NCBI GenBank assembly: GCA_018715855.1
Contig: DVKW01000109.1
Location: 1-25,264 of the forward strand
Reading direction: 5' to 3'
From: Candidatus Galligastranaerophilus intestinigallinarum
Lineage (GTDB): Bacteria; Cyanobacteriota; Vampirovibrionia; Gastranaerophilales; Gastranaerophilaceae
DNA length: 25,264 nt
The translations under genes and the position numbers were made by a program. Below the pieces are notes generated by a model. It saw nothing but the letters and a program-made list of their open reading frames with translations. It searched no databases and had not been told where the DNA came from. This document shows, piece by piece, positions 1-5,405 of the stretch. Every line of letters begins with the position of its first letter. Position 1 is the first letter of the stretch.

Positions 1-80
1 CTATAAATTAGCCTCAAAGTTCCAACAACTCGGCAATTTAGACTCAAAATCCTTATCTCAAATGTCCTGATAAACTATAC

Positions 81-391
81 TTGGATCCTGACAGGAACTT
101 AATGAGGTTAAATATATTAATGGTAAAATTCGCGCCTTGGAGACTCTGCCGACTGAAAAAGTGACTAAATGTCACTTTTGAAGGAGAGGGCAAAAGCGAA
201 GCGATTGCACAAGGGCAGGAACTTAATGAGGTTAAATATATTAATGGTGAAAATTCGCGCCTTGGAGACTCGGCCGACTGAAAAAGTGACTAAATGTCAC
301 TTTTGAAGGAGAGGGCAAAAGCGAAGCGTTTGCATCCCGACAGGAACTTAATGAGGTTAAATATATTAATGGTGAAAATTCGCGCCTGGAG
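81..391. repeat. Tandem repeat downstream of tRNA-Arg: two full ~125-bp units (92-215, 216-340) plus a partial third (341-391) that runs into the tRNA 3' end
   Basis: CAGGAACTTAATGAGGTTAAATATATTAATGGT(G)AAAATTCGCGCCT starts at 92, 216 and 341 (periods 124 and 125). Units 1 and 2 differ by one indel, two substitutions and the last 6 nt. TTGGATCCTGA (81-91) resembles TTGCATCCCGA (330-340). Confidence 0.95.
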
Positions 392-454
392 GGATTCGAA
401 CCCCCGACCTTTTGGTTCGTAGCCAAACACTCTATCCAACTGAGCTACAGGCGC
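381..454 (-). tRNA. tRNA-Arg (anticodon ACG), CCA not encoded
   Basis: The reverse complement folds as GCGCCTG TA GCTC AGTTGGATA GAGT G TTTGG CT-ACG-AA CCAAA AGGTC GGGGG TTCGAAT CCCTC CAGGCGC G. Confidence 0.97.
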
Positions 455-698
455 AAATATTAAATTTTCAAATTTCCCATGTCAGTTGGATAGAGCTTGA
501 TTTTTCCTATTGTTTGAATTTTGTTTTCAACAAAATATCAAACGGCCAACTGAGCAAGAGAGCGCAAATATTAAATTTTCAAATTTCCCATGTCAGTTAT
601 TATAGAGTTGAATTTTTCCTATTGTTTGAATTTTGTTTTCAACAAAATATCAAACGGCCAACTGAGCTACAGGCGCATAAAAATATTTAATTTTCAAA
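436..698. repeat. Tandem repeat upstream of tRNA-Arg: ~110-112-bp units starting at 436, 546 and 658 (third partial), each containing the tRNA 5' end
   Basis: CCAACTGAGC..GCGC occurs at 436, 546 and 658. Positions 658-676 are an exact copy of the 19 tRNA 5'-terminal nt (GCGCCTGTAGCTCAGTTGG on the minus strand). The unit bodies 455-545 and 566-657 are nearly identical. Confidence 0.95.
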
Positions 699-730
699 CA
701 TTTTGCCAAATGCGACAAAACAACATAACT

Positions 731-758
731 ATTCTACCCAAAAAAGCTAAATAATCAA
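731..758 (-). promoter_or_regulatory. Putative sigma70-type promoter for the tRNA-Arg locus
   Basis: Minus strand TTGATT (753-758), 16-nt spacer, TAGAAT (731-736). It lies directly after the TPR gene stop codon. Motif match only. Confidence 0.5.
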
Positions 759-2444
759 CTAAAACCTTTTGTTATTTTTAATTATTGTTTCACTGCCTCT
801 TACAATAGAATTCCAAAATTCAGATTCATGGATATTTCCCGATTTTTCAGCGATATCTGCAGCAAACTTTTTGTAGTTCAAGTCGTTTGGTTCAATTTCA
901 ACAGCTTCTTTAATATACAACATGGCATCATTATAAAAACCAAGGCCAAAGTTGCTAACAGCTGCTTGAAAATAATATTTTGCAGGCTGCGGGTTTAGTT
1001 CAAGCGCCGTTGTAATTAAGCTAAGCGCTTTTTTGTATTCTTCTTTTTTATTTAAAATTAAACCTTTAAAATAATAGCTTTCGGCATTGTTTTTATCTAA
1101 TTCAATTAATTTATCCAAAGAATTAATTGCGCTATCATATTCTTTTTTTCTGTAAAAAATTCTTGCTTTTGAATTTAAAAAGCTTGCAATTTCACCGTAA
1201 GAAGAATATTTTTCAATCAATTCTTCCGCTTTTTCATACATTTCATTATCAATCAATAAATCAACATATTCTGAAACCGTATGAATGGAATCGGGGTAAT
1301 GTTCAAGGTGTTTTTCATAAAATTCCATTGCTTTTTTATCAAGTTTTAAATCTTTATAAATTGAACCCAAAGTATCAAGAAGTGTTAAATCATCTCTAAC
1401 TTTCGGGTTTTCATTATATATTTTTTCAAGTTTTTCTTTTGCAGATACAATTTCCCCCTTTTTATATTCAACAACTGCTCTTAAAATTTCTGCCTGAACC
1501 TTAAAGTTAGACATAGGGTCAATTAAAGTTAAATTAAAAAGTGCGTTATCATAATCTTTTTGTTTTTCAAAAACCCAAGCCAGCAAAAGATACCTTTTAT
1601 CAATTGCGCTTTTTGGTTCGTTTTGTTGAATGCAAAGCGTGATAGATTTTTTTAATGTAGCAATCGCTTCATCAAACCAGTTTACATCCATATAAGCTTT
1701 TGCAAGCTCCAAATAAAATTCTTGAAAAATTCCTTTGCTTAATTTAATTGCAAGGTGGAAATTATCAATTGCTGCAAAAAAATCCTTCCTTTTAACCTGC
1801 ATTAAAGCCTTATAATAATAGCTCATAGGGTCTTTTTTAATTTTTAAAATTTCATCCATTAATTTTTCGGAATTTTTATAATCGCCTTCGTTAAAATAAA
1901 TTAAAGCAAGGTCAAATTTTGCTTCACAAAATGTGGGCGACAATTCAACCACTTTTTTTAAAATTTCTTTTTTGTTTTTATCATCTAAAAGTGAAATTAT
2001 ATATAAAATATCAGGATCGCCTTTTAATTCATCATCAAGCCCTTCATATATTTTTAAAATTTCATTTGCCCTTCCCAATTTTAAAAGCACGCTGAAATAT
2101 TTAACAAAATCTAATGGTTTCTTTGAATGTTCGCAAATTTTTTGAATTAAATTAAGGGCTTTATTATATTCTTTTAAAAGAAAATGAATTTCATAGAGCT
2201 TGTTTTGGCTATGTTCGTGGTTTTTATCAATCTCTAAAACCTTTTCATATTGTTCACTTGCTCTTTCATAATTTTTCAATAAAAAATGCAAATCTGCGAT
2301 AGATGAAATAACTTCTACTGTTGTTTTCTCATCCACATCATCACTTAAAACTTTGTATAAAACCTCAATTGCTTCCTTATAGAGCTTTTGGTTTTTTAGT
2401 TCAAAAGATTGTTTAATATATTTTATGTAATCATTATTTTCCAT
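759..2444 (-). CDS. Tetratricopeptide-repeat (TPR) protein
   Basis: 561-aa ORF with many ~34-aa helical repeats, e.g. AESYYFKGLILNKKEEYKKALSLITTALELNP and AKYYFQAAVSNFGLGFYNDAMLYIKEAVEIEP. Confidence 0.85.
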   Translation of the reverse strand: MENNDYIKYIKQSFELKNQKLYKEAIEVLYKVLSDDVDEKTTVEVISSIADLHFLLKNYERASEQYEKVLEIDKNHEHSQNKLYEIHFLLKEYNKALNLIQKICEHSKKPLDFVKYFSVLLKLGRANEILKIYEGLDDELKGDPDILYIISLLDDKNKKEILKKVVELSPTFCEAKFDLALIYFNEGDYKNSEKLMDEILKIKKDPMSYYYKALMQVKRKDFFAAIDNFHLAIKLSKGIFQEFYLELAKAYMDVNWFDEAIATLKKSITLCIQQNEPKSAIDKRYLLLAWVFEKQKDYDNALFNLTLIDPMSNFKVQAEILRAVVEYKKGEIVSAKEKLEKIYNENPKVRDDLTLLDTLGSIYKDLKLDKKAMEFYEKHLEHYPDSIHTVSEYVDLLIDNEMYEKAEELIEKYSSYGEIASFLNSKARIFYRKKEYDSAINSLDKLIELDKNNAESYYFKGLILNKKEEYKKALSLITTALELNPQPAKYYFQAAVSNFGLGFYNDAMLYIKEAVEIEPNDLNYKKFAADIAEKSGNIHESEFWNSIVRGSETIIKNNKRF

Positions 2445-2547
2445 AAGTAAATTATATAATTTTTTAAAACATTTGTAAAAAAGTTAATATTCTTGCAAAA
2501 AAAGAAGCAAAATATTAATATATTTTTAACAATAAAAGGATTTAAAA

Positions 2548-3441
2548 ATGACCGAAAACGAAAAAGCACGCATACAAAGAGAAGTCAGCCTGCAAAATTT
2601 AAAAGGCAAACCAAAATTATCAAAAAAAACAGCAAACAGCTTTAATTTAGCAGCTTTTGCTTTCCCTGTAATATATAATTTTGTTTACAAAAGAAAAAAG
2701 CTTGCAATCACATTTTTAATTTTAACTTGGATACCCCACTTTATTAATCACTTTGTATCATCAGGGTTTTATTTAACACTTGTTATTACAATTTCAATAT
2801 TAACTTTATTATTAGCCTTTATTTCAGGCTTAACAGGCAATAAAGACGCCTACAATGCAAGAAATTATGACGATGAAATTGACTTTTTAAAAAGCCAAAA
2901 ATGCTGGCTGCCTTTTTCAATTGCAGCAATTGTTGTTCACATTTTAATATTTCCAATGCAAATTACAGGCCATACAAATACAATTCAAATGTTAAAATTA
3001 GCGGAAGCTAAGGAAACTTTAAAACAAGCCGTGGTAAATGGCGCTAATGATGGCAATTTGCTTGGTGTAAATACTGTTGAAAATGATATTCCCGCTTATT
3101 TTGCAAAATATTTAAAAAAAGGCAACTTTAACGGCACAGATACAATAACAATGCCAAACGGAACAACCTTTAAAATAGAAGGCTATTTATACGAATGCGG
3201 CTCTAAAAAACAAAATACATATTATGAACAAAAAACTTCTTGCGCAACCGTTACGATTGATTTAAACGGCAACAAAGGCCCAAATGAAGCAACTTCAATG
3301 GATGAACTTGAAAAAATCAGAAGCCTTGTAAATCGTTCAACAAAATTAAAAGATATATACACTCTCTACGTTTATAACGATGACCTTGCCGCAAAAGCAG
3401 GAACTGTTGAGCAATTTGCGCTTGAAAGATTTGAAAAATAG
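2548..3441 (+). CDS. Membrane protein: N-terminal multi-TM domain (FNxAAF, DUF2628-like) followed by a pilin-like globular domain
   Basis: 297-aa ORF with AAGGA RBS. It has hydrophobic segments at about aa 32-47, 52-95 and 120-137, then an amphipathic helix and a C-terminal C..C.TVTIDLNGNKGPN motif. Family assignments are from recalled motifs. Confidence 0.6.
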   Translation: MTENEKARIQREVSLQNLKGKPKLSKKTANSFNLAAFAFPVIYNFVYKRKKLAITFLILTWIPHFINHFVSSGFYLTLVITISILTLLLAFISGLTGNKDAYNARNYDDEIDFLKSQKCWLPFSIAAIVVHILIFPMQITGHTNTIQMLKLAEAKETLKQAVVNGANDGNLLGVNTVENDIPAYFAKYLKKGNFNGTDTITMPNGTTFKIEGYLYECGSKKQNTYYEQKTSCATVTIDLNGNKGPNEATSMDELEKIRSLVNRSTKLKDIYTLYVYNDDLAAKAGTVEQFALERFEK

Positions 3442-3456
3442 CAAATGAACTTTTTC

Positions 3457-3485
3457 ATGACAACAGAATTTTTTTATATTATTAT
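3457..3485 (+). promoter_or_regulatory. Putative promoter for tRNA-Thr and the kinase
   Basis: ATGACA (3457-3462), 17-nt spacer, TATTAT (3480-3485). Motif match only in AT-rich DNA. Confidence 0.35.
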
Positions 3486-3504
3486 GTAGTAAAGATGGTT
3501 ATTT

Positions 3505-3577
3505 GCCGATGTAGCTCAGTTGGTAGAGCAATCGATTCGTAATCGATAGGTCGTGCGTTCAAGTCGCATCATCGGCA
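3505..3577 (+). tRNA. tRNA-Thr (anticodon CGT)
   Basis: GCCGATG TA GCTC AGTTGGTA GAGC A ATCGA TT-CGT-AA TCGAT AGGTC GTGCG TTCAAGT CGCAT CATCGGC A forms a full cloverleaf. Confidence 0.97.
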
Positions 3578-3596
3578 AATTAAAGAATTTAGAATA

Positions 3597-5405
3597 ATGA
3601 AAAAAAAGTTTGAATTCAGTTTATCAACACAAAATAAACTAATAATTACGGGGTTAGTTGTTTCTACTGCAATTATTATGGCAGTTTCATATTTTGCAAT
3701 CGATAAAATAAGAGAAAAACTTTATGAAAACTATGCAAATTCAGGCCAGCTTTTAGGCAGAACAATTGCCATTCAAAGCTATGAATTAATGAAAAAATCT
3801 GATGTTCAATCTAAGAAAAATTTGTTCAGACAACACGCCAAGCTTGTTTTAGAGGGCAATTCGGATATTTCTTTTGTAACCCATAAAGATGCAAACAACA
3901 AAATAATATATTCAACAACGGAAGAATACCCAAAAAGAGAAAAAGACACCAAAACCACTCTAACAACGCCTGTTTTAAATGAAAAAGGAAACGTTGTGGG
4001 GTATGTTGAAATTGGGCTTAATGCAAACCTTGCAAAATCTATTTCAAATACAACAAAAAATTCAATGCTTGTTGTGTTTGCCATGATGTGGCTTATTTAT
4101 ACAATAGTAATTGTTCTAAACACCATTTTAATAAGGCGGGAATTAGCCATTTTGAGATTAGGGGTTAAAGAAATTTCAAGCGGAAATTTTGGAACAATTT
4201 TAGAAAACGAACAAACAACAGGTGAAATTAAAGAATTATTCACGGCCTTTAACGATATGAGCCAAAGGCTTCATTTATATGAAGAACAAAACATAGACCA
4301 ATTAACATTTGAGAGAAACAAATTTGAATCTGTTTTAATGGGCATTGCAAACGGGGTTGTCGTGTGCGATAAATTCGATAAAGTTGTTCTTGTAAACCCA
4401 TCTGCTCAAAAGCTTTTAAATAAAACCATTTTAAATTCTTCAATTTTAGATTTTGTTGATTCTAAGGGAATAAAATGCTTTAAAACAGGCATTGAAAAAT
4501 TTAAACAAACCCCGATAGATGAAGCGGAAAATAAGCCCCAATCTTTCACAATAACAATAGAAAAAAAAGTTATAAAAGCCATTGTTTCATCTATGTATTC
4601 AAATGTACATGATTATTTAGGCTATATCATAATCTTAATCGACATTACAAAAGATGCTGAAATTGACAAATTAAAAAGCGATTTTATATCAAATGTTTCC
4701 CACGAATTAAGAACGCCTGTTACAATTTTAAGAAGTTATGCAGATACTCTTTATAACTATGGCGAAGATTTCAGTTTTAAAGAACAAAAAGAATTTATCG
4801 GAATTATAAACGATGAAATTATTCACCTAAATAGAATGGTAAATGACATTCTTGATTTTTCAAAAATAGAAGCTGACACAAAACTTGAAAAACAATATCT
4901 GGATATTTCATCTACAATTGAAAAAACCCTTGTGGGGCTTAAAGTTTTAGCAGATGAAAAGAAAATGAAAATTTTTCTTACAAAACAAGACGAGCTCCCT
5001 TTAATTTTATACAACGAAGAAACAATTGAAAGAGTTATAAACAACCTCGTTACAAACGCAATTAAATATTCGCCCGAAAAATCAAAAATAGAAATAACCG
5101 TTGGGCTTACTGCAGACCATAATTATGTAAAAGTCAGCGTAAAAGACCATGGAATAGGAATTGCGCCTGAACTTTTGGATAGAATTTTTGACCGCTTTTA
5201 TAGAGTTGAAAACACAACCCACACAATAAAAGGAACGGGTTTAGGGCTTCATTTGGTTAAAACCGCAATAGAAAAACAGCACAACGGAAAAGTTTTTGTG
5301 GAATCAGAACCGAATAAAGGTTCAACTTTCAGCTTTATTTTGCCTTTACAAGAAGATTTTATTCCTGAAAATAAAAAAGCAGACTATAAGCCGGATTCTG
5401 TTTAA
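3597..5405 (+). CDS. Sensor histidine kinase (TM-periplasmic-TM-HAMP-PAS-HisKA-HATPase), NblS/Hik33-like
   Basis: H-box FISNVSHELRTP, N-box NNLVTNAIKYS, G1 DHGIGI, F-box FDRFYRVE and G2 GTGLGL. There are two TM segments, a HAMP (GEIKELFTAFNDM) and a PAS (GIANGVVVCD...VNPSA). The NblS-like call is from recalled similarity. Confidence 0.9.
   Translation: MKKKFEFSLSTQNKLIITGLVVSTAIIMAVSYFAIDKIREKLYENYANSGQLLGRTIAIQSYELMKKSDVQSKKNLFRQHAKLVLEGNSDISFVTHKDANNKIIYSTTEEYPKREKDTKTTLTTPVLNEKGNVVGYVEIGLNANLAKSISNTTKNSMLVVFAMMWLIYTIVIVLNTILIRRELAILRLGVKEISSGNFGTILENEQTTGEIKELFTAFNDMSQRLHLYEEQNIDQLTFERNKFESVLMGIANGVVVCDKFDKVVLVNPSAQKLLNKTILNSSILDFVDSKGIKCFKTGIEKFKQTPIDEAENKPQSFTITIEKKVIKAIVSSMYSNVHDYLGYIIILIDITKDAEIDKLKSDFISNVSHELRTPVTILRSYADTLYNYGEDFSFKEQKEFIGIINDEIIHLNRMVNDILDFSKIEADTKLEKQYLDISSTIEKTLVGLKVLADEKKMKIFLTKQDELPLILYNEETIERVINNLVTNAIKYSPEKSKIEITVGLTADHNYVKVSVKDHGIGIAPELLDRIFDRFYRVENTTHTIKGTGLGLHLVKTAIEKQHNGKVFVESEPNKGSTFSFILPLQEDFIPENKKADYKPDSV

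Follow-up and report, generated by a model that had tools for sequence, protein, structure and literature searches.

The window analysed here, meaning the whole stretch of 25,264 nucleotides (nt), covers the initial 25 kb of contig C1 of G000, a metagenome-derived genome of Candidatus Galligastranaerophilus intestinigallinarum (1.6 Mb, 32% G+C, 85% complete). Close to its left end, an intact tRNA-Arg(ACG) gene lies on the minus strand (454 to 381; Rfam RF00005, 70.3 bits; 380-455 according to ARAGORN, within one base), and the region upstream of the gene contains an antisense copy of its own D-arm, hereafter the anti-D segment. The repeat search found a perfect 14-nt inverted repeat between 430-443 (CTCTATCCAACTGA), which is the D-arm (tRNA nt 12-25), and 482-495 (TCAGTTGGATAGAG), the two arms being 100% complementary with 38 nt between them. 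On the tRNA strand, 495 to 482 reads CUCUAUCCAACUGA, the exact complement of tRNA nt 12-25; it ends 27 nt upstream of nt 1, and the G at 496 possibly adds a G.U pair with U25. A preliminary description of this DNA had reported a perfect 14-bp inverted repeat, with the complement of the D-arm about 28 nt before the tRNA 5' end and a mutated equivalent in the more distal repeat unit, and all three statements agree with our measurements, since the distal counterpart at 593-607 (TCAGTTATTATAGAG) is indeed degenerate. Inverted repeats of 14 nt with a spacer of up to 100 nt occurred once in the window versus a mean of 0.1 in shuffled sequences. Among the 30 tRNAs detected in the genome, the longest upstream complement to the tRNA's own nt 1-32 was only 4-8 nt in 25, and it reached 14 nt for Arg-ACG, 18 nt for Asn, 12 nt for Arg-TCT and 11 nt for Asp.

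The anti-D segment is one part of a composite unit, all on the minus strand. Moving upstream from the tRNA, a 27-nt A/U-rich linker (455-481; repeat families D6 and D7) carries a partial copy of the native leader, recognizable by its TTTGAAAATTTAATATT box, which directly precedes the tRNA in the module-free relatives G002 and G008. The anti-D segment proper with the G at 496 (482-496) is supported by the inverted repeat I6, by a 15-bp helix selected by RNAalifold and by cross-species identity. It is followed by an A-rich spacer (497-511) with the remnant AAUAGG, which comparison with relatives identifies as a decayed direct copy of tRNA nt 20-25 (AUAGAG), since ATAGAG(CAT) is intact in better-preserved relatives, e.g. 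G014, L061 and L092. Next come the 32-nt hairpin H (512-543; GTTTGA.ATTTTG ... CAAAAT TCAAAC), a 13-pair helix with compensatory changes, and a dead copy of tRNA nt 1-19 followed by CC (544-565; repeat families and leader-only fold). Within this dead 5' copy (565 to 546), nt 1-9 are decayed and nt 10-19 are intact; in the predicted leader-only fold, nt 12-19 of the copy are paired to the 3' half of the anti-D segment. The distal unit (567-676; repeat families D3, D6 and D15) repeats this order with an exact copy of tRNA nt 1-19 (658-676), CC, hairpin H (624-655), the degenerate anti-D and a linker. Tandem Repeats Finder (TRF) accordingly detected two units of about 112 nt upstream of the tRNA (436-677: period 112, 2.2 copies, 91% matches).

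Concerning transcription, the only good sigma-70 promoter predicted is TTGATT-16 nt-TAGAAT (758 to 731, minus strand), directly after the stop codon of an open reading frame (ORF) with tetratricopeptide repeats (759-2444) and upstream of the whole array. This promoter is conserved, with or without the module, in nine members of the genus (G000, G001, G002, G003, G007, G008, G009, G010 and G011). The predicted leader is about 36 nt long in the module-free G002 and about 270 nt in the window, where it includes both units, and no terminator-like site was predicted. Since the conserved promoter lies upstream of the array, the anti-D segment is probably part of the tRNA-Arg(ACG) precursor, as the preliminary description had supposed, and in silico the start does not fall downstream of the segment. 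An internal promoter candidate present in each unit (CTGACA-17-TAATAT) was rejected because its -10 box ends 2 nt before tRNA nt 1, so that the start would fall inside the tRNA. The hairpin was likewise rejected as an intrinsic terminator, having no U-tract and no terminator prediction. In some other subtypes, TGATATAAT stands just after the anti segment as a good promoter-like box. In the tRNA-Arg CCG subtype of genus g11 (L043, L044, L048 and L050), the dead copy ends at nt 14 and such boxes follow the anti segment, namely an extended -10 TGATATAAT in L043 and L044 and TACAAT in L048 and L050; judging from these motifs, the units may carry a promoter of their own, in which case the anti segment would not be transcribed.

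The predicted folds indicate what such a leader could do to the tRNA, all energies being nearest-neighbour estimates without tertiary structure or base modifications. For a 186-nt precursor (566 to 381), the minimum-energy fold was -58.4 kcal/mol against -50.6 kcal/mol with the cloverleaf enforced, and for a 344-nt precursor the values were -98.5 and -83.4 kcal/mol. Both minimum-energy folds contain the anti-D:D-arm helix with pair probabilities of at least 0.95, and pairing between leader and D-arm was predicted to be 8-15 kcal/mol better than the cloverleaf. As isolated duplexes, the 14-bp anti-D:D-arm helix was estimated at -21.9 kcal/mol and the 8-bp dead copy:anti-D helix at -10.5 kcal/mol. 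Folded by itself, the leader reaches -25.5 kcal/mol, the anti-D segment being already paired to the dead 5' copy, and the net gain from invading the tRNA, relative to independent folds, was only -5.0 kcal/mol, an amount that tRNA tertiary structure could offset. The probability of leader pairing was 0.49-1.0 in all five module-bearing tRNAs of G000 versus 0.00 in seven control tRNAs. The earlier proposal that leader pairing competes with cloverleaf folding therefore holds in the predicted energies, with buffering by the dead copy being possible.

The anti segment tracks the D-loop of the tRNA next to it, as seen in five pairs of sequences: AGTTGG/CCAACT, AGCTGG/CCAGCT, AGATGG/CCATCT, AGCAGG/CCTGCT and AGTCGG/CCGACT. 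It matches the real tRNA and not just the dead copy: in one subtype the dead copy ends at nt 14 and the anti segment still covers nt 10-22, and at L061 the dead copy reads AGTGGG, yet the anti segment fits the AGTCGG of the tRNA. In the 15-bp anti-D:D-arm helix selected by RNAalifold, 3 of the 15 pairs were changed on both sides, and in the pairing between dead copy and anti-D (84% paired) two pairs showed double changes, counts for which the controls are weak among related sequences. The covariation check suggested by the preliminary description thus came out positive, as the complementarity is maintained by changes on both sides of the helix. The helix of hairpin H is also well kept, with 99.4% of cells paired and 5 of the 13 pairs compensated.

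The same architecture was found at other tRNA genes, first of all within G000, where five further tRNAs carry the module, each with a dead 5' copy and a hairpin. At tRNA-Asn(GTT) on contig C134 (281-352, minus strand), a perfect 18-nt complement of nt 10-27 is located 34 nt upstream, with a dead copy of nt 1-13 and a hairpin ahead of it. This tRNA-Asn(GTT) is the strongest case in G000, the predicted free-energy difference of leader invasion being -20 kcal/mol. The anti segment comprises 12 nt plus a G.U pair at Arg-TCT (C242), and it extends into the anticodon stem at Asp-GTC (C107; 15 of 16 nt matching) and at an initiator-type Met-CAT (C220; 15 of 17 nt), while Val-TAC (C19) has an inverted copy of nt ~24-43 with deletions.

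For the comparison among relatives, genome labels were used as deposited, a few being probably mis-binned, and the counts are not mutually independent. Of the 10 genus members sharing this tRNA and promoter, 4 lack the module: G002, G003, G008 and G009 have no tRNA-Arg(ACG) unit, whereas G001 and G010 have a single one, G000 and G007 have two, G005 has at least two and G011 has three. The covariance model derived from 12 units matched 22 of the 151 genomes of the order. A pattern scan with one genome per species gave 42 loci, most of them titled Candidatus Gastranaerophilales, and 14 of the pattern-scan matches were judged to be chance; the one pattern hit among viral contigs was also rejected as a chance tRNA-Thr match. 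A systematic pass resulted in about 40 non-redundant modules, whose anti segments cover tRNA nt ~10-30 and mostly end 19-36 nt before nt 1. Their hosts are ten tRNA species (Arg-ACG, Arg-CCG, Arg-CCT, Arg-TCT, Arg-GCG, Gly-TCC, Val-TAC, Asn-GTT, Asp-GTC and Met-CAT). Clear 5' modules also precede tRNA-Arg genes on L081 and L092, contigs labelled Candidatus Saccharibacteria and Candidatus Peribacteria (candidate phyla radiation, CPR); therefore, the architecture is not confined to Melainabacteria. Overall, the inverted-repeat feature was seen again in dozens of independent assemblies. Repeat-array stretches in L035 (G160:C1) and L075 read N.

A general order of the module, which is non-coding and measures about 85-115 nt (units of 95-116 nt contain no ORF), can be drawn from these loci. 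The native leader with a dead tRNA copy of nt 1 to 13-20 is followed by C(C), a hairpin, a decaying direct copy of nt 20-25 that sometimes reaches nt 34, a short turn, an inverted copy running from nt ~28 (sometimes ~44) back to nt ~10, a linker of 19-36 nt and the intact tRNA. At the fMet, Asp and Val tRNAs, the inverted copy extends into the anticodon stem. The D-arm region is thus present three times per module, as direct, inverted and direct copies. The duplicated piece of the gene has a fixed right end within the D-loop (nt 13-20) and a variable left end, which ranges from about -1 to -56. Better-preserved modules have a turn of 3-8 nt between the direct nt 20-25 copy and the inverted copy, and the clearest one, L092, consists of nt 1-19, CC, the hairpin, ATAGAGCAT, TCA, ATGCTCTATCCAAC, 56 nt identical to the native leader, and the tRNA. 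From preserved modules such as this one, the unit can therefore be described as a copy of the D-arm paired to its own complement, with the hairpin branching at nt 19/20. Where units are repeated (G000, G011 and G005), the anti-D segment is decayed in distal units and perfect in proximal ones.

The hairpin bodies are related among loci. The sequence CCAAG-hairpin-CGTTATA..AAAGCA is common to Arg-TCT (C242) and Asp-GTC (C107), each with its own local tRNA fragments, and related bodies are also found among four tRNA-Arg isoacceptor genes of relatives. The presence of related bodies at unrelated tRNAs indicates that the insert moves and that the inverted segment is remade or refitted at each target. 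Many hairpin loops are of the type C-GAA-G or C-GNNA-G, which form unusually stable mini-hairpins in DNA.

We consider that the module is a small non-coding insertion and duplication at tRNA 5' ends, i.e., selfish or duplicative DNA to which the inverted arm is intrinsic and for which leader pairing is a side effect, and we put the probability of this reading at about one half. Under this reading, DNA rearrangement and mobility would insert a hairpin at the D-loop and triplicate the D-arm region in direct-inverted-direct order, and the module would then grow and shrink as tandem units. The module's own three-way fold, short-range replication template switching that homogenizes close inverted repeats, or both would preserve the complementarity. 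Because the tRNA promoter is upstream of the array, the anti-D segment would be transcribed in the leader and able to trap the D-arm as a by-product, and the dead 5' copy, transcribed first, might act as a buffer by pairing with the anti-D segment before the real D-arm emerges.

This reading is best compared with the integrative elements that target tRNA genes and with their remnants, for which attL/attR partial tRNA repeats, tandem accretion and cis-mobilizable remnants have been described, e.g. in tycheposons (bioRxiv 10.1101/2020.12.28.424599). As in integrase remnants, a partial direct tRNA copy flanks the insertion (nt 1-19 at 658-676, and decayed at 546-565) and the functional gene remains whole; arrays of modules, patchy presence among close relatives and repeats that break assemblies are further likenesses. 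Integrase islands, however, use 3' ends and carry genes, whereas the module duplicates the 5' end (nt 1-19, with the break in the D-loop) and its insert is about 90 nt, gene-free and furnished with an inverted target copy; moreover, it has no linked integrase and its left boundary varies. In the literature, we found no description of modules that combine a duplicated 5' gene end, a hairpin and an inverted target copy. The module looks like the footprint of an undescribed selfish DNA.

Several observations weigh against such an interpretation. The lack of an enzyme is the weak point of every explanation at the DNA level: no Y1 transposase (PF01797), IS110-type transposase (PF01548) or reverse transcriptase (PF00078) was found in G000, a genome that is 85% complete. 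The covariance-model search of the 151 genomes gave neither a 'filled' site with a larger element between hairpin and anti-D nor a half-site that would indicate one, and we know of no transposition or repair pathway that gives direct and inverted target copies around a hairpin. Furthermore, the anti-D segment is as conserved as any part of the unit, the mean pairwise identity across eight species being 87% for anti-D, 50% for the adjacent spacer (0.87 vs 0.50) and 40% for the hairpin loop. Among the transition mismatches, counted manually, G.U on the tRNA strand predominates (about 9-10) and A.C is rare (3); this excess would also fit selection on RNA or single-strand structure, and it is suggestive only because of base composition and shared ancestry.

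Other candidate enzymes did not accompany the modules either. None of the three tyrosine recombinases in G000 is linked to 5' modules; one of them, on C220, lies 3' of tRNA-fMet. At that locus (C220, 949-2211), a 5' module stands upstream of the tRNA-fMet-like gene (CAT), and the opposite strand has an ORF for a 322-aa tyrosine recombinase about 570 nt downstream of the gene; contig C46 holds a 3' tRNA fragment matching the fMet-like gene. Small GIY-YIG ORFs occur commonly in the family, but no tRNA was present within 1.5 kb at 28 of the 30 best loci, and GIY-YIG in G000 was limited to one weak fragment and a 565-aa ORF, which is probably UvrC, judging from its length. In G019, of the same family, 14 GIY-YIG domain matches were observed, mostly in ORFs of 92-120 aa, versus 1-7 in relatives, which suggests that small nuclease genes have expanded in this genome; at the loci checked, they are not near tRNAs.

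Comparisons with known RNAs and known sites were also negative. The unit matches no family of Rfam 15, the tRNA itself being the only match in window positions 1-4000 at E <=1, and a hammerhead or other known RNA was rejected accordingly. A group II intron-like retroelement was rejected because PF00078 is missing and a unit of this size could not accommodate an intron ribozyme. The anti-D segment is not the remnant of a tRNA gene on the opposite strand, as it covers the D-arm only (elsewhere with the anticodon stem) and neither ARAGORN nor Rfam detected anything on the plus strand. R boxes resembling those of integron attC sites (GTT...AAC) in the hairpin were discarded because their orientation is the reverse of that in attC.

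A different possibility, which we regard as unlikely, is that the anti-D segment works in mobility itself, either because the folded strand mimics the double-stranded target of a recombinase or because the anti segment guides the unit to its target across the insertion point. The segment extends across the insertion point (nt 19/20) and is adapted anew to each target tRNA, and homologous hairpin bodies occur at different tRNAs. The stable loop types, the narrow spacing of the anti segment from nt 1 at most loci and the unit length of about 100 nt, which is plausible for single-stranded circles, point in the same direction. Integron attC and the attP(+) of CTX phage are single strands that contain a sequence and its inverted copy; folding rebuilds the double-stranded site, and branches or extrahelical bases mark it. 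The module strand similarly carries a sequence and its inverted copy with a branch, but the modules are not associated with any IntI- or Xer-type enzyme, and attC and attP(+) do not duplicate a gene end. For the guide version, the analogy is with the pairing of exon- and intron-binding sites (EBS/IBS) in group II introns or with the bridge RNA of IS110. The absence of a candidate enzyme linked to the modules counts against both versions, as does the variable left boundary of the duplicated leader, which is unlike a recombinase-defined site; known systems of such kinds leave no duplicated 19-nt gene end. Hairpin energies showed no clear strand asymmetry (mean -0.2 kcal/mol), a weak test since the set was contaminated by tRNA self-hits. 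An extended form of this idea appears improbable to us: the inverted segment would be a re-fittable targeting determinant of a new class of tiny, protein-less mobile modules directed to tRNA D-loops. The folded single strand, of DNA or RNA, would display the target copy in its paired state, the hairpin would mark where insertion occurs, and a host or trans-acting enzyme would insert the unit with the intact tRNA regenerated. The pair of decoy and anti-D in the leader would then make maturation of the tRNA dependent on an intact module and so serve as a cis-acting addiction device.

The possibility raised by the preliminary description, a maturation switch of the host, would assign the function to the RNA, and we think it distinctly unlikely. 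In this model, the anti-D segment would block the cloverleaf and RNase P cleavage, the dead 5' copy would be an anti-anti-D decoy, and the two states would gate the supply of mature tRNA. The promoter position, the strongly predicted anti-D:D-arm helix and its advantage over the enforced cloverleaf are in its favor, and the small net gain would leave the two states near balance once the tertiary energy of the tRNA is allowed for. Leader pairing in every module-bearing tRNA of G000 and in none of the controls, the covariation at three pairs with the G.U excess, and the double changes in two mutually exclusive pairings (three in anti-D:D-arm and two in dead copy:anti-D, with the weak controls noted above) agree with it as well. 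Engineered leader-sequestering elements are reported to control RNase P cleavage (PMC7897497), and natural pairing between leader and 3' end is reported to inhibit RNase P binding (PMC9433436). In both, leader pairing alters the pre-tRNA fold, and a similar two-state competition is predicted here; however, those systems sequester the leader or extend the acceptor stem, whereas the leader of the module would invade the tRNA body at the D-arm. Unlike the designed RNase P riboswitch (PMC7897497), the module, as it is known here from sequence and predicted folds, has no ligand-binding part and is dispensable in close relatives.

The distribution speaks most clearly against a switch, since the module is missing in the four genus members that share the tRNA and promoter and in 129 of the 151 genomes of the order, and its hosts are ten unrelated tRNA species with no common physiological logic. 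In addition, it is always accompanied by a hairpin and by a duplicated gene end, which is the signature of a DNA rearrangement; no sensing element was identified and no Rfam family matched. Covariation is not diagnostic, as template switching can also produce it (PMC8794818). The narrower suggestion of a switch specific to the ACG tRNA is unlikely for the same reasons, namely dispensability in close relatives, occurrence at ten tRNA species and the lack of a recognizable sensor.

The preliminary description had offered a template-switch scar as its fallback. In its pure form, each module would be an independent replication accident, in which one template switch leaves at nt ~19-30, copies the opposite strand as far back as nt ~10 and returns further upstream in the leader, without a mobile element and without function. 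Highly transcribed and structured, tRNA genes are obstacles to replication, and the decay of distal units also speaks for this reading. Template switching produces reverse-complement copies of nearby sequence in one event, creates and maintains perfect stems that mimic compensatory change, and can yield direct-inverted-direct layouts (Monttinen and Löytynoja 2022, PMC8794818); the layout of the module with its variable upstream return is what a four-point switch would give (PMC8794818). The module resembles such mutations in being an exact reverse complement of sequence within about 100 nt (14 nt in the window and 18 nt at tRNA-Asn on C134). It differs from them in the hairpin body, which is present in every module and has no local template, as judged against the empty-site relatives G002, G008, G009 and G003; a resemblance of the G014-type loop (TACGAA) to the anticodon loop is suggestive only. 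Related bodies at unrelated tRNA genes and across four tRNA-Arg isoacceptors, and the high frequency in one bacterial order (22 of 151 genomes, with several tRNAs per genome), would be left unexplained, and no hairpin-less module was seen among the 30 tRNAs of G000. The fallback came nearer the mark than the switch, but a single scar fails to explain homologous hairpin bodies at unrelated tRNAs, and we give little credence to independent accidents as the whole explanation. A chance match or an assembly artefact at the end of a metagenome contig can be dismissed: the window does start at base 1 of C1, in a metagenome scan one contig of a near-identical strain (L109) breaks inside the first unit, and about 0.1 such 14-mers are expected by chance per AT-rich window, but the recurrence of the architecture inside long contigs of many independent assemblies, e.g. 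G011:C1 (126 kb) and L083 (1.23 Mb), with locus-specific complementarity of up to 18 nt, already refutes it.

Whichever explanation is preferred, an essential and apparently single-copy tRNA gene lies here behind a leader with a perfect 14-18 nt antisense of its own D-arm, and the same is found at several tRNAs per genome across an order of gut bacteria, with the same architecture apparently present in other phyla. If the module is selfish DNA, it would represent an undescribed way of colonizing tRNA genes from the 5' side without killing them, and it would explain broken metagenome assemblies and confused tRNA annotation at module loci. If the pairing matters for the RNA, the module would be a case from nature in which maturation is controlled by a leader that invades the tRNA body. 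The approximately 40 pairs of tRNA and anti segment constitute a data set with which selection on pairing can be separated from homogenization by template switching.

On the other side of the tRNA, units of about 125 nt (90-380, minus strand; TRF period 125, 2.4 copies) each consist of a tRNA 3'-end fragment and a body of two hairpins, and these downstream units are the 3' counterpart of the 5' module. The two-hairpin body also follows a tRNA(CAT), at the start of C153 and on C106, and it lies inverted upstream of tRNA-Thr(GGT) on C203. In the window (81-391), the body common to the 3' units is about 78 nt long, and the ends of C246 and C106 share only its left half before continuing into other DNA, which suggests population variants with something larger inserted at the body. 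Upstream of tRNA-Thr(GGT) on C203 (6802-6912) and of tRNA-Ile(GAT) on C17 (5048-5226), a dead 5' tRNA copy is followed by an inverted hairpin body of the 3' type, with no clear anti-D in either unit, and at tRNA-Ile(GAT) the whole promoter (TTGATA ... TGATAAT) was duplicated together with the dead copy unit. In L041 (G131:C13), a second, dead copy of tRNA-Arg lies about 30-230 nt downstream of the intact tRNA-Arg(ACG); it has one insertion in the D-loop, a hairpin in place of the anticodon loop, and an intact T-arm and acceptor strand at its end.

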